Source: Candidatus Omnitrophota bacterium (GTDB lineage: Bacteria; Omnitrophota; Omnitrophia; Omnitrophales; Aquincolibacteriaceae). From it: DNA of 64,000 nucleotides. The stretch spans positions 11,314-75,313 of the forward strand of contig JAUYMS010000041.1 of the NCBI GenBank assembly GCA_030698625.1, written 5' to 3'. The position numbers and the translations under genes were made by a program. This document shows, piece after piece, positions 2,981 through 24,121 of the stretch (positions are counted from its first letter, which is position 1; each line of letters starts with the position of its first letter). Under the pieces are notes generated by a model. The model made no database searches. It saw only the letters and a program-made list of their open reading frames with translations, and was not told the origin of the DNA.

Positions 2981-3038
2981 TTTTCTTTATCTCCTTGTTA
3001 TTTTTTCCCCTTGCTTCCTTCTGCCTCTGTGCCTTTAA

Positions 3039-3052
3039 TGTAAGCGCTTACA
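3039..3052. promoter_or_regulatory. Perfect 14-bp palindrome TGTAAGCGCTTACA (LacI-family operator type) in the promoter region of repeat-protein gene A, between the LacI-1 stop and the gene A start.
   Basis: Read directly: tgtaagcgcttaca is self-complementary. It matches the LacI/GalR-family consensus TGnAAnCGnTTnCA (cre/PurR-like). Confidence 0.6.
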
Positions 3053-3070
3053 CTTAAGGGCCAAAAAAAT

Positions 3071-4114
3071 TTACGCCCGGCTCACGGTCTTGCGCTCAAC
3101 GAATTCGGCAGGCAGAAGCGTTTGATTTCCGTAAAAGCCGCGGGCTGCCTTCTTACCCAGGTGACCGATCATAATCTCGGCACCCCGCTTGGCCACGTCG
3201 TAAAGCGGCATCCTCACGGTCGTAAGCGGCGGGCTCATCGTCGCAGCCGCTTTCTCATCGTCAAAGCCGACAACCGAGACGTCGCTCGGGCACTTACGGC
3301 CCGCTTTGCTTAAGTGCTGAATGGCGCCTCGCGCCATGGCATCGTTCAGGCAAAACATCGCCGAAAAATCCTTTCTCTTTTTTAAAAGTTGAGCGGCGGC
3401 CTCTTCGGCCTTCTCTTCGCGAAAATCGCCGCAGACGATCATGTCCTGATCCAAGCCGATCCCCTTTTTCTTTAGGTAACCGCGAAAGCCTTCAAGACGC
3501 AGACGGCTGTCGACCGAGCATGCGGCCCCGGTCATCACCGCTATTTTGCGGTGGCCTTGCCCGTAGAGGTATTCGGCGGCCAGTTTTCCGCCCGCCGCCT
3601 GATCGCCGCTTACGAAGTGGGCATGCACATTCTTTTCGGGATCCCCCAGAATAACGCAAGGCACACTCAGGTTACGAAATGCGGACTTATCCGAAAAGAA
3701 GGCGTGCCAATGCGTGACAATCAAGCCGTCGATTCCCTCGGCAGCTTTGAAATCGTATTTATTCCAATGGGTCTCGCCGCATTTGAGCATCAACACCTTG
3801 AAGCGGTAGGGCGTATTGAGGAGGGCATCGGAAACGCCGCAGAGTATTTGCGCATAATAATCGTTTAGGAAAACGCCTTCTCCGTGCGGCACCAAGACCC
3901 CCAATGTCCGGTACACCGCCTGAGTCAGCCCTTTAGCGGCGAGGTTCGGCGCGTACTGATGCCTGGCGATTATCGCATCCACCCGCTTGAGGGTATCCGG
4001 CGATACCTTGGAGCGCGTTTCGGGGTTCATGGCGCGCGAGACGGTCGCTATCGAGACCTTGGCCTTTTTTGCTATTTCATAAATGGTTAATTTCATTTTC
4101 CATCCTTTTTCCAT
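3071..4114 (-). CDS. LacI-family transcriptional regulator (paralog 1).
   Basis: The N-terminal HTH reads MKLTIYEIAKKAKVSIATVSRAMN, followed by a periplasmic-binding-protein-like sugar-binding domain. The true start is more likely M7 (about 4096) than 4114, because the operator sits 5 bp from the 4114 ATG. Confidence 0.9.
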   Translation of the reverse strand: MEKGWKMKLTIYEIAKKAKVSIATVSRAMNPETRSKVSPDTLKRVDAIIARHQYAPNLAAKGLTQAVYRTLGVLVPHGEGVFLNDYYAQILCGVSDALLNTPYRFKVLMLKCGETHWNKYDFKAAEGIDGLIVTHWHAFFSDKSAFRNLSVPCVILGDPEKNVHAHFVSGDQAAGGKLAAEYLYGQGHRKIAVMTGAACSVDSRLRLEGFRGYLKKKGIGLDQDMIVCGDFREEKAEEAAAQLLKKRKDFSAMFCLNDAMARGAIQHLSKAGRKCPSDVSVVGFDDEKAAATMSPPLTTVRMPLYDVAKRGAEIMIGHLGKKAARGFYGNQTLLPAEFVERKTVSRA

Positions 4115-4294: not shown

Positions 4295-4639
4295 ATGCAC
4301 AAGCGAGTCATCCGGTTGAGCCTTATGTCCTTATGCGTTATCGGCGTGTTTTCAAGCGCCGCACTCGCAAAAGAACTTAAAACCTTTGAGATCAAAATCA
4401 AGGATCATCGCTTTGTTCCGTCTGAAATCGTTGTTCCCGCGGGTGAAAAAATTAAGCTCATCATTGAAAATCAGGATGATACCCCCGAAGAATTTGAGAG
4501 CGACTCATTGCGGCGCGAAAAAATTATCCCTGCCCATACTAAAGCACAGGTGTTTATTCCCGCGCTTAAGCCCGGCGAGTATAGCTTTGTCGGGGAGTTC
4601 CATGAAGAAACCGCACAAGGAAAATTAGTCGCCGTATAA
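4295..4639 (+). CDS. Small periplasmic cupredoxin-like protein (FtrB-like or EfeO-N-terminal-like partner of an FTR1 permease).
   Basis: 114 aa with signal peptide MHKRVIRLSLMSLCVIGVFSSAALA. It has a beta-rich mature domain and a strong SD. It lies immediately upstream of the FTR1 gene. Confidence 0.55.
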   Translation: MHKRVIRLSLMSLCVIGVFSSAALAKELKTFEIKIKDHRFVPSEIVVPAGEKIKLIIENQDDTPEEFESDSLRREKIIPAHTKAQVFIPALKPGEYSFVGEFHEETAQGKLVAV

Positions 4640-4660
4640 CAGGAGTACTTAAGGTTTTTT

Positions 4661-5554
4661 ATGCTGTCTATTTCTATTATTGTTTTTCGGGAAGTTCTGG
4701 AGATCGCCATGATCCTCGGTGTGGTGATGGCCGTCACCCGGGGATTGGTGGGGCGCAGGCGTTGGACTGCGGCCGGTATTTTAGGCGGTCTTTTGGGTTC
4801 TGCCGTCGTCGCCTATTTTACCGGAGCGATTTCAAATACGCTGGATGGAATGGGGCAGGAAGTTTTTAATGCCTTGGTTTTGATTCTGGCGACGGGACTG
4901 ATCGGTTGGACTGTGGTATGGATGAAAAGCCATAGCGCGGCTCTCGTGCGGCAAATAAAAGATGTCGGTAAATCAGTTGCCGCGGGGGAAGTCCCCCTCC
5001 ATATGTTGTCCGTTGTCGTGGGGCTCGCGATGCTTCGCGAAGGCTCAGAGATTGTCCTTTTTATTTACGGAGCGATTGCCTCCGGGACACCCTTTTTGAG
5101 TGTGCTTGCCGGGTTTACCTTTGGACTGATTTCCGGGAGTGCGGTCGGGGCGGCACTGTATTTCGGTTTATTAACCATCTCTCCCAAACATTTCTTTTCA
5201 GTAACAAGTTTTCTTCTTATATTTTTAGCTGCGGGAATGTTATTGCAGGCCGTGGGATTGTTAACGGCAGTCGGGTGGCTCCCTGAGGGAATTTCTCCTC
5301 TCTGGGACACTTCCGCAATCCTTAGCGAGAAACACGTCCTCGGTCAACTCGCGAATGCCTTGTTTGGGTATACCGCCCGGCCCTCTGCCGCTCAGGCCTT
5401 TGCCTATTTTGCAACAGTTGCAGGGCTCCTATTCTTAAATCACCTCTATTCACAACCCGGTAAGGGAAAAAACCATGTTCGCAGCAAGCGTAAGTCAAAT
5501 GAACAGACTCATCTTCTAGGGCTCGTTATTTACGGACGCTCTTCAAACACGTGA
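4661..5554 (+). CDS. High-affinity iron permease, FTR1/EfeU family.
   Basis: Polytopic membrane protein with two RExxE motifs (REVLE near the N-terminus and REGSE in the middle). Confidence 0.85.
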   Translation: MLSISIIVFREVLEIAMILGVVMAVTRGLVGRRRWTAAGILGGLLGSAVVAYFTGAISNTLDGMGQEVFNALVLILATGLIGWTVVWMKSHSAALVRQIKDVGKSVAAGEVPLHMLSVVVGLAMLREGSEIVLFIYGAIASGTPFLSVLAGFTFGLISGSAVGAALYFGLLTISPKHFFSVTSFLLIFLAAGMLLQAVGLLTAVGWLPEGISPLWDTSAILSEKHVLGQLANALFGYTARPSAAQAFAYFATVAGLLFLNHLYSQPGKGKNHVRSKRKSNEQTHLLGLVIYGRSSNT

Positions 5555-5633: not shown

Positions 5634-6056
5634 TTAAGACTTTTTCTTAGGACCCGGGAGGTTGCCGCCGGGCCCGCCTTCGCCAGAGGCCTTACGCGCT
5701 TGCATCGCAGCTTTCATCGCGGCCTTTCGCTCATCGGCCGAGCTTTTCATTTTGCCTTTACGTATCAGCGACTCCTCCGGCATCGCAGCCTCCGGCGCAA
5801 CCTTATCCTTCATCCGGGCCGCTTTCTTTTCCGCGTGCTGCCTTTCTCTTTCAGCTTTCCTTTGGGTCAAGATCCGGTCTCGCTCCCCTTTATCCTTGCC
5901 TGCCGTCTTCGCCCAATCGCTCATTTTATCGAGGGTGTTTTCCTGATGCACCTCATCATCAGCAAAGGCCGTAGCAACCGGTAGAACCGAAAAGACCATA
6001 AAACCAATCAAAAGAACCGACAGAAACTTCTTCATATTCATCTCCCTCTCTTTCAT
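5634..6056 (-). CDS. Secreted Lys/Glu/Arg/Ala-rich low-complexity protein, function unknown.
   Basis: Signal peptide MKKFLSVLLIGFMVFSVLPVATAFA, followed by a highly charged KE-rich sequence. Confidence 0.5.
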   Translation of the reverse strand: MKEREMNMKKFLSVLLIGFMVFSVLPVATAFADDEVHQENTLDKMSDWAKTAGKDKGERDRILTQRKAERERQHAEKKAARMKDKVAPEAAMPEESLIRKGKMKSSADERKAAMKAAMQARKASGEGGPGGNLPGPKKKS

Positions 6057-6074
6057 TTGTGTTACGTTTTCACC

Positions 6075-6491
6075 CTAAGACTCTTCAGGCCCGACAGTGC
6101 GGCGGAGAGTTTTTTTCTGGCCCTGTTTCTTTTTGGCGTCGAGCATTTTGTCCTTCGCTCGCTTGGAGCGCTTGCGCTTTTGCCGTTTGATTTTGGCAAT
6201 TCGGTGTGCTTCTGCGCTTTCGCGGCCGCGGATGCGGGCATCCAGCTTCTTCAGAAGGATACTGCGCGCTAAAAAGCGGTTCATCGCCTGCGAGCGTTCT
6301 TGCTGGCACCGCACGCTGAGCCCCGTAGGAATATGCTTGAGCACCACACAAGTGGAAACTTTGTTTACGTTCTGTCCGCCCGGCCCGCCGGACCGCACGA
6401 AGGTTTCCCGGAGGTCGGCTTCGCGAATGCCAAGCCGCTTCATGGCCCCGGCCAGTGCGTCATTCTTCTTTTCGGTGACCGGAAATCGCAT
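6075..6491 (-). CDS. arfB: Alternative ribosome-rescue factor ArfB (peptidyl-tRNA hydrolase, YaeJ family).
   Basis: 138 aa. The GGQ motif appears in GGPGGQNVNKVSTCV. It has a basic C-terminal tail typical of ArfB. Confidence 0.85.
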   Translation of the reverse strand: MRFPVTEKKNDALAGAMKRLGIREADLRETFVRSGGPGGQNVNKVSTCVVLKHIPTGLSVRCQQERSQAMNRFLARSILLKKLDARIRGRESAEAHRIAKIKRQKRKRSKRAKDKMLDAKKKQGQKKTLRRTVGPEES

Positions 6492-6494
6492 GGG

Positions 6495-6707
6495 CTAGGT
6501 GGTCACGATCACTTGCCCGTCAAACTCAATTCGCTGACCCGGGCGCACTTTAAAGGCCTTACGGGTTTCGATGACCCCGTTCACCTTCACCTGCGAACCG
6601 GCAATGACCTGCTTGGCAAACCCGCCGCTCTCACAAAGCCCCATTAATTTGAGGAGCTTGAAGAGTTCGATGTACTCGGTTTTTAGCGAAAATTCAATTT
6701 GCGGCAT
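6495..6707 (-). CDS. S4-domain RNA-binding protein (YbcJ-like).
   Basis: 70 aa. It resembles E. coli YbcJ (LLKL.G...SGG.AK..I..G.V.V.G..ETRK). Its stop lies 4 nt from the arfB start. Confidence 0.8.
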   Translation of the reverse strand: MPQIEFSLKTEYIELFKLLKLMGLCESGGFAKQVIAGSQVKVNGVIETRKAFKVRPGQRIEFDGQVIVTT

Positions 6708-6713
6708 GGTGAA

Positions 6714-8105
6714 TTATGGCTTCACGACAAACACCACATCTCCTTCGCCGTCGAGGCGGCCGAACTGGGGCGTCTGAAGATTGTTGGAGGCACGCGACAC
6801 TTGCGGTTTGAGAAAGGCCCCAAGCTCGGAGGCTGTTACCACGTTGTCATTGTCGCGGTCGGCTTCTCCGTCGAGGCCCCTCAGCAGATATTCGGTGAAG
6901 ACACCGTGGCCCTCACGCTCCATCACTTGTTCTCCTTTACCACCGGCGGTGATCATTTGGATCGACCGCATGCCGGTTATTTTCTGAATGTACCCGTTAA
7001 TGCCGGGATCGATTCCCGCCGCACGGGTAAAGCCAAGCCCTGAATAACAGGCATCCATCATATAGAGCATGTGCTTCGCCGGAATGCGGCGGGAAAGCGC
7101 TCTGATTTGGTCCATTGAGATCGCTGTCGTGAAATAATTGGTGATGTCGCCGTCTACGGGAATAATGTATCCCTGCTCTTTGCCGTCAGTCAGGGTTTCT
7201 GTCTGTCCGTGCCCTGCGAAGAAAAGCACAACCCTATCTTCGGCCCCGACTTTCTTAGGCAGCTCGCTTGCTAGCAATGTCAGAATCCTTGTGCGTGTGG
7301 CGTCTTTATCCAGGACTTCAATGACCTCGTCAAAACCGATTGCCTCAAGTTTTTGCTTCACGGCCCGCGCATCATTGACCGCATATTCCAGAGACGGCCA
7401 GAGATCATAGTTGTTGATACCGATTACGACGGCCCAGCTTTTTTGGTAATAATCTCCGGTTTCGAGTTCGCTCGCTTCAGGCGGCCCGAGTTCACCCCTT
7501 ACCGGAGCGGAAATCACGCGACGCTCGGCAAAGGCAATGAGGGGCGAAGAATGGTCGAGATTGTCCGCGAACTTGGAGAAAGTTTCCTGCAAGACCTTGC
7601 GGAAGCCATAGCTCCAGGGCGACGCCGTGGCCTTGCCGCCGCCTTCGATCGTATCGAGGATTTTCTGATCACGGTTCATCAACGTGCCCGTGAGGTCCAC
7701 CGTGGTTGTATTGAAACTTCGTTGACCCAGGGTGCAAAGCAGATCCACGGACATAACTAGATCGGCTTCGCCTTGTAGAGCTGCCTCAATACTCTCAAAT
7801 TGAACCACACTTTTAAAACGCTTCTCAAGGATTTCCTGCAAACCCACCGTGACCAGATCCGCACCAATGTCGCTGGTCGCGAGCGGATAGGCCACCTTCG
7901 CCAATCTCTTATTCTCTTCAATGTAGTCGAACGCCCTTTTGGCATTCTCTGTGTGCACGATGCCGAGTTTTAGTTTTCCGAGAGGCCCGCTTTGACCCCC
8001 GGCCGACCTCAGGGCAGAGACGGGATCCAAATAGCTGGGCGTTGAAACGCAACCCGACATCCATAAGAGTACGGCACCGGTGAGCCAGAAGTTTCTTGAG
8101 ATCAT
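6714..8105 (-). CDS. Lipoprotein with a C-terminal peptidase C14 (caspase/orthocaspase) domain.
   Basis: Start reassigned to the ATG at 8103-8105 (MISRNFWLTGAVLLWMSGC, lipobox Cys; GGAG SD 10 nt upstream). The caspase fold shows the His-Gly (FFAGHGQ) and Asp-Ala-Cys (MMDACYSG) catalytic dyad context. A C-terminal DGEADRDNDNVVTASEL motif is typical of bacterial caspase homologs. Confidence 0.8.
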   Translation of the reverse strand: MISRNFWLTGAVLLWMSGCVSTPSYLDPVSALRSAGGQSGPLGKLKLGIVHTENAKRAFDYIEENKRLAKVAYPLATSDIGADLVTVGLQEILEKRFKSVVQFESIEAALQGEADLVMSVDLLCTLGQRSFNTTTVDLTGTLMNRDQKILDTIEGGGKATASPWSYGFRKVLQETFSKFADNLDHSSPLIAFAERRVISAPVRGELGPPEASELETGDYYQKSWAVVIGINNYDLWPSLEYAVNDARAVKQKLEAIGFDEVIEVLDKDATRTRILTLLASELPKKVGAEDRVVLFFAGHGQTETLTDGKEQGYIIPVDGDITNYFTTAISMDQIRALSRRIPAKHMLYMMDACYSGLGFTRAAGIDPGINGYIQKITGMRSIQMITAGGKGEQVMEREGHGVFTEYLLRGLDGEADRDNDNVVTASELGAFLKPQVSRASNNLQTPQFGRLDGEGDVVFVVKP

Positions 8106-8176
8106 TCCCTGTTCTCCATGATATCTGTTTCGGCCATTCAGGCTGAAATCCCAAGGGAAGGATACGCGCAGGAACG

Positions 8177-9400
8177 CTAGGGGGCAAGGGCGGACCAAAG
8201 CTCCTGAAGCTTGGCGTAGGCCGGGCGAAGCCGGGTCTTGAAGTTCGTGCCTTCTTTTTCTATCGCAGCCAGCCCGAACCACTCTTCGACATCATCCGGA
8301 CTCTGTTCTAAGGAATCTTCTTTCCCGAATTTCCACCACGCATCTAGATATTCGTGCACGACCATTCCGGCAATGGGCGACGACGCCGTCGTGATGTCGC
8401 GCCAACTCTGCTCAAGACCTGTCGCTTGCTCTTCCGGCGTGTTGCCGCCGTATCCGTAATCGGGCGATCCGTAATGCTCGGCACCCGGCGCAACGCTTAA
8501 GCCTGTTTCCGTGACCAGCAGGAGTTTGTTCGGGTGCTTGCGTTTAAGCTGCTCGAGCCAACCCTGGAAGAGGGTCCCGGTAGCCGACCCTTCATCCGCC
8601 TGCGCATATTCTAAAACGGCGTAACTGTATGCATTGAAGCTTCTGAAATCGAGAAACGTTGTGTCCAGCAAATCGTAAGTCCGGGCTTCGTTGGCGTAGG
8701 AGACAAGATGCGTATGTCCGTAGCGTTCTGTCTGGTAGGTCTTAAGGTAATCCGCTATTTCAGCGATGAAGCTCTCGGTCGCCGTCGAACCTTTCGGTGC
8801 GCTGATATACTTCCCGTCATAGCCGCTGATTTCGGGATGGAGATCATCGGTCGATTCCACACTCGCCCGGCTCAGTTCACTGCCGACGATAAAGCCAAGG
8901 ATGGGCGGGGGTTCTTCTTCGGAGTAAACCGAATAGATGCGGCTTAACGTGAGACGAATCGCATGCTGACAGCGGCGTTTATAGGAAACATTCTGTAAGT
9001 CCTTCTGACTTGGGTCAAACCAGATCGTCTGAATGAAGGCCAGGTCCCCGGCATCCTTCAAGGCCTCATAGACAAAAACGGGAACTTCCCAGAGGCGAAT
9101 CGTGTTGGCGCCCGCCCCTTTGATGTCGTCGATATCCCGGCGAATCCGCGCCTTCAAGGGCTCCGGCAGATCCGTTTTCCGGACAAGCTCCCAAGGGACT
9201 TCGCCCGGATAAACGGGGACATAGACAATGCCTTTGACGAGGAACTTTTCGCCTTCTTGGAAAAAGTAATCGTCACCCAATTCGAATTCGGCGGCCGAAA
9301 CGGGCGCAACGAACGACCCCAAACAAAGACAGAAAGCCGCAACCCATTTCACCCATCCCCTTCCAAAGATATTTGAGCACCGTCTTTTATTCATGCGCAT
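8177..9400 (-). CDS. Secreted GH5-like (clan GH-A, TIM-barrel) glycoside hydrolase.
   Basis: Signal peptide present. GANTIRLW is the typical N-terminal GH5 strand. An NEA/NEP-like acid/base motif appears in VSYANEART. A nucleophile-like motif appears in LLLVTETGLS. Confidence 0.55.
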   Translation of the reverse strand: MRMNKRRCSNIFGRGWVKWVAAFCLCLGSFVAPVSAAEFELGDDYFFQEGEKFLVKGIVYVPVYPGEVPWELVRKTDLPEPLKARIRRDIDDIKGAGANTIRLWEVPVFVYEALKDAGDLAFIQTIWFDPSQKDLQNVSYKRRCQHAIRLTLSRIYSVYSEEEPPPILGFIVGSELSRASVESTDDLHPEISGYDGKYISAPKGSTATESFIAEIADYLKTYQTERYGHTHLVSYANEARTYDLLDTTFLDFRSFNAYSYAVLEYAQADEGSATGTLFQGWLEQLKRKHPNKLLLVTETGLSVAPGAEHYGSPDYGYGGNTPEEQATGLEQSWRDITTASSPIAGMVVHEYLDAWWKFGKEDSLEQSPDDVEEWFGLAAIEKEGTNFKTRLRPAYAKLQELWSALAP

Positions 9401-9446
9401 ATAAAAATAACGGGCAGTAACCGACGCGTTTCATCGGCTACTGCCC
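9401..9446 (-). terminator. Rho-independent terminator downstream of repeat-protein gene B.
   Basis: The hairpin stem is GGGCAGTA (9412-9419) pairing with TACTGCCC (9439-9446), with an inner CCGA/TCGG. On the minus strand it is followed by GTTATTTTTATAT. It directly abuts the start codon of the GH5-like gene. Confidence 0.5.
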
Positions 9447-9512: not shown

Positions 9513-11804
9513 TTAGCCAATCTGTCGCACTTCCAGAGTCGACAAGTTCACTTCGTAGATCATGGTGACGCCGTCGACCACGGCTTCGATAATCGCAATG
9601 CCCGGCAGCCATTGAATTAATCGGAGCGTGAGCCCCGTCGTGAAATGCGGGATTTCAACTTTGACCGACGGGTCGTCGAGACTTTGCACAACGATGGTTA
9701 TGTCCTTGGGATTGCCGGCATAGCCGCCGTCGGGCGAAACATCGTAAACATCACTGAACGCGTCGCGAAACCCGACGCCTTTACTCATGTTCACGAGTTC
9801 CGTTTCTTCGCCTGTCAGAATATTCACCACCGCAAGCCGCTGCTGATACCACCCCGAAAAGCCCGAGTAGGTATAGGAGTCGATAAACCAATAATCCGGA
9901 TTACTGGCGGAGGGAACAAACACTCCGGTTAAAGGAGATTCGAGTCCGAAAATATGCGTCTCGAGATGTCCGGGAACATCATAGACCGCATACTTGCCGT
10001 CGAGGATCACGTCGTGATTCTGAGTGCCGTCGGTAAACGTGATGATTTGGCTTTCTCCGGTCCGAAAATCCATTACTTCTAAAATGCCGTCCCTGCGGAA
10101 TCCGAAACGGGGATCTGAGGGGGCCGGCGCCCACCCTGAAAAATCGACAGGGACATGGGTAAACTCCATCGCCCCCGTCTGCTGCGGCCCTTCTACGATC
10201 ACGAAGATCATGCGAAGGCGCGTGAGATCGATCCCCTGTAAATACGAAGCGGGAATGCGATACATTAATTCTTGGTCAGGCCGGATGCCCTCGACGTAAA
10301 CCGCACGCTTATTGTCAAAGGCATCGACAAACTCCAATTTTACGGTGGCGGCATCACCTTTGAGACCGAATACAAATTCGGGATATCCGCCGGCATCAAA
10401 TGACTCAACCACGGCAGTCGCAAAATCATCAAAGGTCAATCCGCTCCCGGCCCAGGTCGCGTTATTGGTTTGATAATCCATATGCAATCCCCTAGCCGTA
10501 GCCGTTGACGTAACCGTGGCCTCGACAGGCGCGATCACCATCGCGGATGCGGGGGGCAGCTGCGTGTGGTCTGAAAGCAATCCGTCGTCGACCGGAACCA
10601 CCCCGGGAATAATACCCTTGGAAGGCGTTTGATAGAGGATGTCGAGAGTTCCCGTCTCATAGGCCCCTTCGAGAATGAAATACATGATCCGAATTCTCGT
10701 GAGATCAATGCCTGAGAAAGCCGCTGTCGGGATATTCCAAAACTGAGTCGTATCGGACTCGATTCCGGATAGATAAATTACGGCTCTTTGGTTCCATTCA
10801 TCGATGACTTCGAGTTTCACTTGTGCCGCGTCACCGCGAAGACCGATGATCAATTCCGGATAGTAGCGCATATCCACGGTTTCGGTCTGAGCGGTCGAGA
10901 AATCATCGAAGGTCAGTCCCCCGCCTGACCAGCCGTCGGCCCCGTTTGCGTAGTTAAGGCGCACTCCCCGTGAAGTCGTCTCGATAGCCGTTTGAGAATC
11001 CGGAGGCGCGACCACCGTCTGCTGCGGCAAATAGGTACCGTTGGTGCTCCAGGTCTCGGGAAGTCGCGTGACCTGATTCACGGTTAGATCAGCGTCCGGA
11101 TTGACCGATCCTGCCTCAACCGGCTGAATGTTCATTTCCAGTTTCCCGGTTTGATACTGACCTTCCACGATAAAATACAGAAGCCGCGTGTTGCTCAGAT
11201 CCACCCCTTGAAACCGGCTGGTATCGATGACCCACACCTGCTCCTGCTGCGAAAGAATTCCCGTTAAATGAACGGAACTTTTATTGTTATTCACGTCCAC
11301 AATTTCAAACTTGAGGGTCGAGACATCGCCCTTAAGCCCGATGATAAGCTGTGATGTTGCGGACAAATCCATGGATCCGGCCGAATCGAACGAAAACCCG
11401 CCTCCGGCCCAACCCGCCCATGATGTGTCATAGTTCATGACAGCGCCGCGTCCCGTCGGCGAAATCGAAGCCATCCAAGACTGAGCCGAGACCGTTACGG
11501 GATCGGGATCCGGAACCGGCAAAGGCTCAATATCGGTGACATCCTTATCTTGTGAAGGACTTATGGGCCCCTCCGCCGATGCCGCAGAAAGCGGCCCGTC
11601 GGGAACGGTTGAATCCGAAACGACCGCCACGGCCTCTTCGGCAGATGCCTTGTCTTCGGCTGCCGCAAGGCTCATCACAGGTGTGAATTGCCCCATTGCG
11701 TTTTGACCGATGGTCTGTTCGGCATAACCGATAGGCGAAACGCTTGTGACCATAAAGAAAATAACTGTTGTTAAAGCGAGTTTCGAAAGTGGATTGTTTT
11801 TCAT
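9513..11804 (-). CDS. Secreted protein with three tandem ~115-aa repeat modules (repeat protein B, paralog of 890..2980) plus a distinct ~200-aa C-terminal domain.
   Basis: 763 aa with signal peptide. It has the same module signature (GW.G.G..FDDF ... K.E.VD ... R.R..YFIVEG..TG) three times. It lies 40 bp downstream of LacI paralog 2. Confidence 0.8.
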   Translation of the reverse strand: MKNNPLSKLALTTVIFFMVTSVSPIGYAEQTIGQNAMGQFTPVMSLAAAEDKASAEEAVAVVSDSTVPDGPLSAASAEGPISPSQDKDVTDIEPLPVPDPDPVTVSAQSWMASISPTGRGAVMNYDTSWAGWAGGGFSFDSAGSMDLSATSQLIIGLKGDVSTLKFEIVDVNNNKSSVHLTGILSQQEQVWVIDTSRFQGVDLSNTRLLYFIVEGQYQTGKLEMNIQPVEAGSVNPDADLTVNQVTRLPETWSTNGTYLPQQTVVAPPDSQTAIETTSRGVRLNYANGADGWSGGGLTFDDFSTAQTETVDMRYYPELIIGLRGDAAQVKLEVIDEWNQRAVIYLSGIESDTTQFWNIPTAAFSGIDLTRIRIMYFILEGAYETGTLDILYQTPSKGIIPGVVPVDDGLLSDHTQLPPASAMVIAPVEATVTSTATARGLHMDYQTNNATWAGSGLTFDDFATAVVESFDAGGYPEFVFGLKGDAATVKLEFVDAFDNKRAVYVEGIRPDQELMYRIPASYLQGIDLTRLRMIFVIVEGPQQTGAMEFTHVPVDFSGWAPAPSDPRFGFRRDGILEVMDFRTGESQIITFTDGTQNHDVILDGKYAVYDVPGHLETHIFGLESPLTGVFVPSASNPDYWFIDSYTYSGFSGWYQQRLAVVNILTGEETELVNMSKGVGFRDAFSDVYDVSPDGGYAGNPKDITIVVQSLDDPSVKVEIPHFTTGLTLRLIQWLPGIAIIEAVVDGVTMIYEVNLSTLEVRQIG

Positions 11805-18472: not shown

Positions 18473-18550
<78 letters not shown>

Positions 18551-23359: not shown

Positions 23360-24121
23360 TTGGGACGGCTCAACTACCGAAATCAAATGAAAGATAATCT
23401 GCTCCACGGTTCTTGCGTTTTTAGTGCTACGGCTGCCCTCGTCCTTCTTGTTATCCCCTTTGCTGTCTTAGCTGAATCCGGTATTTCTGAATTGGACCAT
23501 ACATTCCAAGAAGAGCAATTACTTGCGTCTAATACGATTGCGGCCCCGCTGGTCACAGCCGGCCGCATGGCGGAGCCCGCGATCGCCATCGAGGGAATGT
23601 CTCTTTTAGCGAAACCGCTTACGACCGGTCACCAAGGAGCGCTCGATTATCAGGGCATTGCCGAACACGGCGTAAGGATTCAATTCCGTCAAATCAAGGA
23701 ACCCGTTGCTTTCTTCTGGGTTTTTGATGAACCCGTGGACCTGAGCGATCGTTGGGTTCGTGTTTATTATGCGGGCCCCATCGTACCGAACCGCCTACAG
23801 CTCAAGCTCGACCACGCCGAAGTCCGGCTCGACGGCGCCTTTGACATTTATCTCGAAAACTCGACTTGGACCCAAACAGTTTTCTTCAAGCTTCCGCGCA
23901 AGAAGACTTTCGAAGCCATCGATTCGCTGCGCCTCGTAGCGAACCCGGGGCTTCTTAAGAACAGCAGCGCGGATTTTTGGATTTTAGAAGTAGAAGTACT
24001 CCCCGAGGGTAACGATCCTTTGGGGGGAGTGTCGGATCTGTCCAGATTCGAATGGTATGACCGGCCATTCCGGCCGGACAACCACATAGGCATTAACTCA
24101 ACGCATTACAAAGCAACATGA
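23360..24121 (+). CDS. Secreted hypothetical protein.
   Basis: Signal-peptide-like N-terminus, probably starting at MKDNLLHGSCVFSATAALVLLVIPFAVLA. No recognisable domain. Confidence 0.5.
   Translation: MGRLNYRNQMKDNLLHGSCVFSATAALVLLVIPFAVLAESGISELDHTFQEEQLLASNTIAAPLVTAGRMAEPAIAIEGMSLLAKPLTTGHQGALDYQGIAEHGVRIQFRQIKEPVAFFWVFDEPVDLSDRWVRVYYAGPIVPNRLQLKLDHAEVRLDGAFDIYLENSTWTQTVFFKLPRKKTFEAIDSLRLVANPGLLKNSSADFWILEVEVLPEGNDPLGGVSDLSRFEWYDRPFRPDNHIGINSTHYKAT

Follow-up and report, generated by a model that had tools for sequence, protein, structure and literature searches.

Why is a gene for a caspase-family lipoprotein placed a few nucleotides ahead of two genes whose predicted products act on ribosomes, and does the arrangement carry any meaning? 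The question arises in a 64,000-nucleotide stretch of Candidatus Omnitrophota DNA (assembly GCA_030698625.1, contig JAUYMS010000041.1, positions 11,314 to 75,313), here called the window. On its minus strand a 463-residue lipoprotein with a peptidase C14 domain is encoded between a gene for a secreted glycosidase-like protein and genes for a small S4-domain RNA-binding protein and a release-factor-like protein with a GGQ motif. The initial annotation read this run as a caspase homologue sitting with a ribosome-rescue module, and hinted at a part in cell death or defence. Comparison with relatives points elsewhere. We consider it fairly probable that the gene encodes an exported, lipid-anchored C14 protease located in the cell envelope, and that its neighbours in the window are specific to this genome.

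Results

An exported caspase-family lipoprotein

The 463-residue protein is 100% identical to one that NCBI lists as 'caspase family protein' in a Candidatus Omnitrophota metagenome-assembled genome; the gene is already annotated under that name and belongs to a known class, the exported bacterial caspase homologues. Its N-terminus, MISRNFWLTGAVLLWMSG followed by Cys19, fits the lipobox pattern [LVI..][ASTG][GAS]-C by pattern reading, and the lipobox cysteine is kept in 20 of 21 aligned full-length homologues (53-63% identity), which bears out the lipoprotein proposed initially. Pfam recognises a complete Peptidase_C14 domain (PF00656; E 9e-18, 65.2 bits against a cutoff of 21.4, model positions 2-222 of 233). 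Both members of the catalytic dyad, His299 in FFAGHGQT (codon 7209-7211) and Cys353 in MDACYSG (codon 7047-7049), are invariant across the 21 homologues, and the intact dyad of the initial annotation holds in this alignment, with no substitution at either position. Asp351 stands two residues ahead of the catalytic cysteine. Aspartate at this place is found in the Arg/Lys-specific metacaspases, and animal caspases have glutamine there. A longer version of the gene, an open reading frame (ORF) of 522 amino acids starting from a GTG at 8282, was rejected because 106 nt of it would fall within the glycosidase gene and because the homologues begin at the ATG at 8105.

The full-length AlphaFold2 model has a caspase core with disordered, low-confidence active-site loops, joined to the N-terminal domain (N-domain) by a flexible linker of ~20 amino acids. 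The top Foldseek matches of the caspase model were 3bij (GSU0716), the yeast and Candida metacaspases and MALT1, and the E values against these structures and caspases, from 5e-7 to 1e-3, place it in the caspase-hemoglobinase fold; a profile search of the PDB matched yeast Yca1 (4f6o). The product of 6714..8105 is probably an active, membrane-anchored caspase-like protease.

The protein shares with bacterial metacaspases and orthocaspases (MEROPS C14, PF00656; GSU0716, 3bij; Yca1, 4f6o) the C14 domain, the His-Cys dyad in G-H-G and D-x-C-x-S-G motifs, the aspartate two residues before the cysteine, and variable accessory domains. Many prokaryotic metacaspase homologues have N-terminal hydrophobic segments that are possible signal peptides (PMC3501461), and of four full-length caspase-domain relatives read from other phyla, three begin with a hydrophobic, signal-like segment (judged by eye); these three also carry binding modules such as TPR, Ig-like and FGE-sulfatase domains. 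Unlike the known bacterial metacaspases, the window protein is lipid-anchored by a lipobox and fused to a domain resembling PelC and LptE, described below, and its catalytic domain is unusually conserved, being 55-70% identical to TPR-linked relatives in Desulfobacterota and Myxococcota. The combination of lipobox, PelC/LptE-like domain and caspase domain was not found described in the literature searched. The family of caspase lipoproteins is largely confined to Omnitrophota.

The N-terminal domain resembles PelC and LptE

The N-terminal ~180 amino acids had been described as belonging to no recognisable family, and they fall into no named sequence family here either, residues 20-215 being blank in Pfam even at E<=10. 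The predicted fold, which the initial annotation had proposed to examine with Foldseek, matches lipoproteins of the PelC/LptE type. An AlphaFold2 model of the N-domain alone had a predicted local distance difference test score (pLDDT) of 81 and a predicted template modelling score of 0.75, with pLDDT values of 87-96 over residues ~40-199; in the full-length model the N-domain scored 84-94. Against the PDB, the best Foldseek match was the PelC dodecamer (5t11/5t10; E 1.5e-5, target template modelling (TM) score ~0.52), followed by an Acinetobacter minor lipoprotein (5tse), GNA1162 (4hrv) and LptE (8h1r_B/5iva_B), and CsgG was a weak match. Every listed fold match is an outer-membrane lipoprotein, and PelC, LptE and GNA1162 are of the sort that docks to the membrane or forms oligomers there. 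Like PelC, LptE, GNA1162 (DUF799) and CsgG, the N-domain combines a predicted alpha/beta fold with a lipid anchor; unlike them, it has no sequence-level membership in those families.

An exhaustive profile search of 1.84 billion proteins returned 183 cluster representatives of the N-domain family, which fall into two length classes of about 200-270 and about 450-510 amino acids. Among 100 representatives scanned, 41 carried Peptidase_C14, a few PDZ, trypsin, CHAT or C25 domains, and one matched Pfam CsgG; about half were stand-alone. Given these fusions, the N-domain appears to be a lipoprotein anchor to which a periplasmic protease is frequently attached. The neighbourhood of one stand-alone member, P0243, was uninformative, being a contig of 738 bp.

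The gene arrangement is not shared by relatives

Conservation of the neighbourhood was surveyed from both sides. The caspase-side set counted 66 loci, drawn from six homologues on long contigs and from loci taken at one genome per species (58), and included 12 distinct full-length relatives and about 50 relatives of the caspase domain. Searched by tblastn with the window's S4, RF-1-domain, 407-residue glycosidase-like, 763-residue and 140-residue proteins, none of the 66 loci gave a match within +-6-8 kb. An S4, RF-1 or glycosidase gene was thus near the caspase gene in 0 of the 12 full-length relatives and in 0 of about 50 caspase-domain loci, and a permissive rerun for S4 on the caspase-side loci (E<=20) gave nothing credible. 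The 138-residue RF-1-domain protein has thousands of relatives of ~137 amino acids, 65-84% identical within Omnitrophota. The set on this side comprised five Omnitrophota loci and 18 full-length metagenome loci, 21 of which had enough upstream DNA to show an S4 gene. Neither an S4 nor a caspase gene was found near the RF-1 homologue in any of these 21, which include relatives of 84% and 75% identity. At the closest of them (L151, 84% identical), a partial ORF upstream was considered as the C-terminus of a caspase and proved unrelated (E 0.61). The initial annotation had itself set this survey as the test of a meaningful arrangement. With the adjacency in none of the 66 caspase-side and none of the 21 RF-1-side loci, the neighbourhood is conserved in no relative, and the idea of a caspase paired with a ribosome-rescue module falls.

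The gene map of the initial annotation was otherwise nearly exact: all four of its minus-strand ORFs are real, and the spacings of 71 bp from the glycosidase-like stop to the caspase ATG and of 6 bp from the caspase stop to the S4 ATG are as given. The 4-nt overlap claimed for the S4 and RF-1 genes is an error, as the sequence ACC TAG ccc ATG leaves a 3-nt spacer. A longest-ORF map of the window has 60 genes, 53 of them on the minus strand, and is 94% coding. Of its 59 adjacent gene pairs 50 lie on the same strand, and 26 of these 50 are spaced by <=20 bp, so that short spacers carry little information here; the tight packing stressed initially is real, yet does not rise above the background of the window. 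Since no relative shares the arrangement and the packing is normal for the window, the adjacency of the caspase gene to the glycosidase, S4 and RF-1 genes looks like a genome-specific accident of tight packing.

Between the glycosidase gene and the 140-residue gene the minus strand showed no terminator-like site, and with gaps of 6 and 3 nt between the genes it is plausible that 9400..5634, including the caspase, S4 and RF-1 genes, is transcribed together. A terminator-like hairpin between the genes for the 763-residue and glycosidase-like proteins is likely to mark a transcript boundary upstream of the run. This hairpin ends only 11 nt before the annotated glycosidase ATG; either translation really begins at a Met further downstream, or the hairpin is read through. 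All of these genes, from that of the glycosidase-like protein to that of the GGQ factor, may well share a transcript in so compact a genome, with no indication of joint function.

Recurrent partners of the caspase lipoprotein

Near the caspase gene of relatives a different set of genes recurs. A secreted protein of ~290 amino acids is encoded near the caspase lipoprotein in 8 of the 12 full-length relatives, directly downstream in seven and 2.6 kb away in L012. A ~580-residue protein with CHASE2 and Guanylate_cyc domains is present in 7 of the 12 and MipA in 6; among the loci with the ~290-residue partner, L003 lacks both the CHASE2 cyclase and MipA, and L013 lacks MipA. In all eight members the N-terminus of the partner matched the NCBIfam model retention_LapA (best E 8.6e-6), below the cutoff. 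Near residues 113-118, after the LapA-like region, the partner has an invariant F-G-x-x-R-G motif, which reads FGA[ST]RG in six of the eight; the motif FG[AS][ST]RG does not occur in the window. A search of the PDB with the partner profile returned coronavirus spike matches alone (E>0.02), which were set aside as spurious.

Two published systems join some of these elements. A metacaspase-CHASE2 fusion is known from Trichodesmium (PMC3501461), and the Burkholderia operon 'BiofilmReg' encodes a FecR protein, a CHASE2 sensor and a lipoprotein (PMC5192318). As in 'BiofilmReg', the caspase lipoprotein lies beside a FecR/LapA-N-like secreted protein and a CHASE2 sensor in 7-8 of the 12 relatives. 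In contrast to it, the lipoprotein of the relatives has a protease domain and no DUF4136 match, a nucleotide cyclase takes the place of the histidine kinase, and MipA is added; the window copy has no such partners within the window. A literature search joining CHASE2, FecR and caspase found no report. The LapG/LapA/LapD system of Pseudomonas offers an analogy, and no closer relation, in that a periplasmic cysteine protease, a retention-module-like protein with a short motif and an inner-membrane cyclic-nucleotide protein are encoded together. LapG belongs to the transglutaminase-like proteases and cleaves at Ala-Ala, and LapD is a receptor for cyclic di-GMP (c-di-GMP). Unlike the Lap switch, the Omnitrophota cluster has a CHASE2 cyclase rather than a c-di-GMP receptor, and no giant adhesin.

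Neighbouring genes in the window

The coordinates of the features are collected in Table 1. The 407-residue protein upstream of the caspase gene had been called a GH5-like hydrolase. Neither Pfam nor NCBIfam yields a family for it at E<=0.01, the GH5 model (Cellulase) is among those without a match, and membership in GH5 was rejected. In a phmmer search of the PDB its sole solved relatives were 9fz9, 9g5g and 9g4n (E 8.6e-18), of which 9fz9 and 9g4n are named 'glycoside hydrolase family 2 catalytic domain-containing protein'. The putative nucleophile motif VTETG lines up with TTEFG of 9fz9, the glutamate of which is replaced by alanine in the variant 9g4n; the sequence also contains SYANEA, a candidate N-E acid/base motif. 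On these similarities it is probably a secreted clan GH-A-type glycosidase-like protein related to 9fz9 rather than a member of GH5.

The S4 protein matches Pfam S4_2 (PF13275; E 1e-22, 80.2 bits against 24.6) and the structure of Escherichia coli YbcJ (1p9k; E 2.9e-11), in keeping with the label 'YbcJ-like'. It does not reach the cutoff of the NCBIfam YbcJ equivalog (60.5 against 95), and the YaaA model is likewise below cutoff.

The product of the next gene, initially assigned to ArfB, is a GGQ release-factor-like protein (Pfam RF-1, E 4.5e-26) with the motif GGPGGQ, a K/R-rich basic C-terminal tail and no codon-recognition domain. An assignment to the YaeJ type does not hold. Against NCBIfam ArfB (NF006718) the protein scored 52.4 bits, with a cutoff of 100, over residues 17-52 only, and the ArfB/YaeJ chains of the PDB matched at ~7e-8 at best, in the GGQ loop only. 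The best PDB match was far closer, chain 7a5h_C of human C12orf65/mtRF-R (1.7e-22; 5.5e-27 with a family profile, residues 20-120). The alignment to C12orf65 is gap-free, and from that alignment alone the alpha-i insert was judged absent. The so-called classical ArfB proteins group with C12orf65, and 'ArfB class 1' with ICT1 (PMC6514570). Like ArfB (YaeJ)/ICT1 and C12orf65 (mtRF-R), the 138-residue protein has a GGQ domain and a basic C-terminal tail; unlike YaeJ/ICT1 'class 1', it groups with C12orf65 and stays under the NCBIfam ArfB cutoff. By similarity it is a member of the C12orf65/mtRF-R-like 'classical ArfB' branch and not of the YaeJ type. On the opposite strand, a cupredoxin and FTR1 iron-permease gene pair (4295-5554, plus strand) adjoins the region of the RF-1 gene. 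At L067 the RF-1 homologue likewise has an FTR1 gene (3001-3762) immediately upstream, and no other hint of local synteny emerged from the RF-1 loci.

The 140-residue protein, encoded 18 bp after the RF-1 gene, is rich in Lys, Ala and Glu and has an N-terminal signal-like segment; its family matches in Pfam and NCBIfam are all sub-threshold, and no homologue lies near the 66 caspase-side loci. On the other side of the run, the 763-residue protein has an N-terminal signal-like segment and three internal repeats of ~170 amino acids (both seen by eye), marked by the motifs W[AS]G.G[FL][ST]FD, GL[KR]GD and Y[FI][IV].EG, and matches nothing in Pfam or NCBIfam. It may be a carbohydrate-binding repeat protein, because its gene is placed between those for a LacI-family regulator and the glycosidase-like protein. 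Further along, a c-di-GMP-I riboswitch aptamer (RF01051, 23307-23381, plus strand; 52 bits against a gathering score of 35) sits 5 nt upstream of a 244-residue ORF (23387-24121, plus strand) that has no Pfam match. The single tRNA of the window is a tRNA-Pro(GGG) at 18473-18550.

Table 1. Features of the caspase lipoprotein locus in the window, with the partner genes found in relatives (the latter in coordinates of their own loci).
Feature	Position	Strand	Basis
LacI-family regulator, 343 aa	11845..12876	minus	ORF
Secreted protein with three internal repeats, 763 aa, no family match	9513..11804	minus	ORF
Terminator-like hairpin	9412..9446	minus	15-bp stem, 9 G-C pairs, T-rich tail; consensus match only
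Glycosidase-like protein, 407 aa, secreted	8177..9400	minus	ORF
Caspase-family lipoprotein, 463 aa	6714..8105	minus	ORF from ATG at 8105
Signal peptide and lipobox, residues 1-19, LWMSG before C19	8049..8105	minus	Read from sequence
N-domain, residues ~40-199, predicted alpha/beta fold like PelC/LptE/GNA1162	7509..7988	minus	AlphaFold2, Foldseek
Peptidase C14 domain, residues 223-447	6765..7439	minus	Pfam PF00656
YbcJ-like S4 RNA-binding protein, 70 aa	6495..6707	minus	ORF, Pfam S4_2
RF-1-domain GGQ protein, 138 aa	6075..6491	minus	ORF, Pfam RF-1
Lys/Ala-rich protein, 140 aa, last of same-strand run	5634..6056	minus	ORF
Partner gene (~290 aa), L001	7447-8328		
Partner gene (~290 aa), L003	7439-8326		
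Partner gene (~290 aa), L006	7435-8304		
Partner gene (~290 aa), L007	2143-3006		
Partner genes (~290 aa), L009, L012, L013, L015			

Discussion

The survey of relatives bears most heavily on the reading with which this locus was first presented, that of a functional operon of caspase lipoprotein, S4 protein and GGQ factor in which a protease of regulated death or defence is tied to ribosome rescue. The three genes do lie on one strand, 6 and 3 nt apart, with nothing like a terminator between them, and PADLOC and NCBIfam see in the protein a generic caspase domain such as conflict systems employ. However, the arrangement recurs in 0 of 12 full-length, 0 of about 50 caspase-domain and 0 of 21 RF-1 loci, such packing is the background of this genome, and the predicted compartments differ, the protease being exported and the S4 protein and GGQ factor acting on cytoplasmic ribosomes. 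PADLOC returned the generic caspase profile only (positions 2-157 of 453) and no match for the neighbours in the window, and the NCBIfam model caspase_w_EACC1 gave 67 bits, far under its cutoff of 140, with no nucleoside triphosphatase or sensor partner. Membership in a known anti-phage defence system was rejected on these grounds, which also leave the hint at cell death or defence unsupported, and we regard such an operon as very improbable. A two-gene rescue module that leaves the caspase out, as a gene that merely lies upstream, is somewhat less remote though still distinctly improbable. In it, the S4 protein and GGQ factor would be the bacterial counterpart of MTRES1 and mtRF-R, acting on split, peptidyl-tRNA-bearing large subunits. 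The closest solved relative of the GGQ factor is indeed C12orf65/mtRF-R, the 3-nt spacer suggests translational coupling, and the pair formally parallels mtRF-R and its S4-like partner MTRES1, which act together on split large subunits (PMC8786322). Yet the pairing occurs in none of the 21 informative relatives, the S4 protein has no detectable similarity to MTRES1 in a PDB search at E<=10 and resembles YbcJ, and the rescue usually ascribed to classical ArfB proteins is that of whole non-stop ribosomes (PMC6514570).

Looking upstream instead, the caspase gene could belong with the LacI, 763-residue and GH-A genes to a secreted polymer-degrading or surface-attacking set, in which the protease digests extracellular proteins or those of a prey envelope for nutrition. 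Such a role is unlikely in our judgement, although the upstream products other than LacI begin with a signal-like segment (by eye), the glycosidase gene is 71 bp away with no terminator-like site between, and three of the four full-length caspase-domain relatives read carry both signal-like segments (by eye) and modules such as TPR, Ig-like and FGE-sulfatase domains. Against it, the glycosidase and the 763-residue protein appear in none of the 66 caspase-side loci, a strong terminator-like hairpin parts the 763-residue gene from the glycosidase gene, and the lipid anchor and PelC/LptE-like domain fit a tethered enzyme better than one set free.

We therefore return to an exported, lipid-anchored protease of the envelope whose neighbours in the window are specific to this genome. 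In this protein the N-domain would tether the protease to the outer membrane, on its periplasmic side, and perhaps oligomerise it, and the protease would cut envelope proteins after Arg or Lys, because Asp351 precedes Cys353 by two residues as in metacaspases. In the canonical cluster of the relatives, the caspase lipoprotein would act on, or together with, the ~290-residue protein. Since this protein, the CHASE2 cyclase and MipA are found beside the gene in most relatives, the family is probably the proteolytic arm of a module that signals from the envelope to cyclic nucleotides; the role of the window copy may be detached or different, as no partners are nearby. Proteolytic activity, specificity, localisation and oligomerisation of the lipoprotein are all predictions from sequence and models.

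Several observations weigh against this interpretation. The similarity of the N-domain to PelC and its like is moderate and at the level of fold (TM ~0.5, root-mean-square deviation ~6 A), and confidence is low in the active-site loops of the caspase model. A tblastn search of the 64-kb window found no ~290-residue protein, CHASE2 cyclase or MipA, and the partner genes are also missing near 4 of the 12 relatives (L004, L005, L010 and L011), so that the signalling role may not apply to the window copy. The retention_LapA match of the partner is under the curated cutoff, and the partner has no Pfam match (E<=10, four copies) or credible PDB match. Finally, the spacings of 6 and 3 nt suggest co-transcription and translational coupling of the caspase with the S4 and RF-1 genes, so that the three may be co-regulated in this organism.

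A more specific mechanism can be formulated, and we hold it to be speculative, with the chances clearly against it. The caspase lipoproteins of Omnitrophota would supply the protease of a signalling device of the envelope that has not been described before. Tethered to the outer membrane, the PelC-like, possibly ring-forming caspase would cut its secreted partner, with the retention-module/FecR-like N-terminus, at the invariant F-G-x-x-R-G and thereby switch the CHASE2 nucleotide cyclase on or off, the window copy being a detached member of that system.

For the window itself these results are of little importance, the arrangement being a packing accident and the gene already annotated. The novelty is modest and lies at the level of the family, in an unnamed anchor domain and its link to a CHASE2 cyclase. 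Three by-products are of moderate value. One is an unnamed PelC/LptE-like family of lipoprotein domains that preferentially carries periplasmic proteases, and another the assignment of the GGQ factor of the window to the bacterial branch from which mitochondrial mtRF-R arose. The third is the recurrent Omnitrophota cluster in which the caspase lipoprotein is joined by the secreted protein, the CHASE2 cyclase and MipA, and which provides a testable idea for the input of the CHASE2 sensor. If the proposed switch is true, this long-orphan sensor domain would gain a proteolytic input, and the cluster would represent a caspase-based analogue of the LapG/LapD switch.

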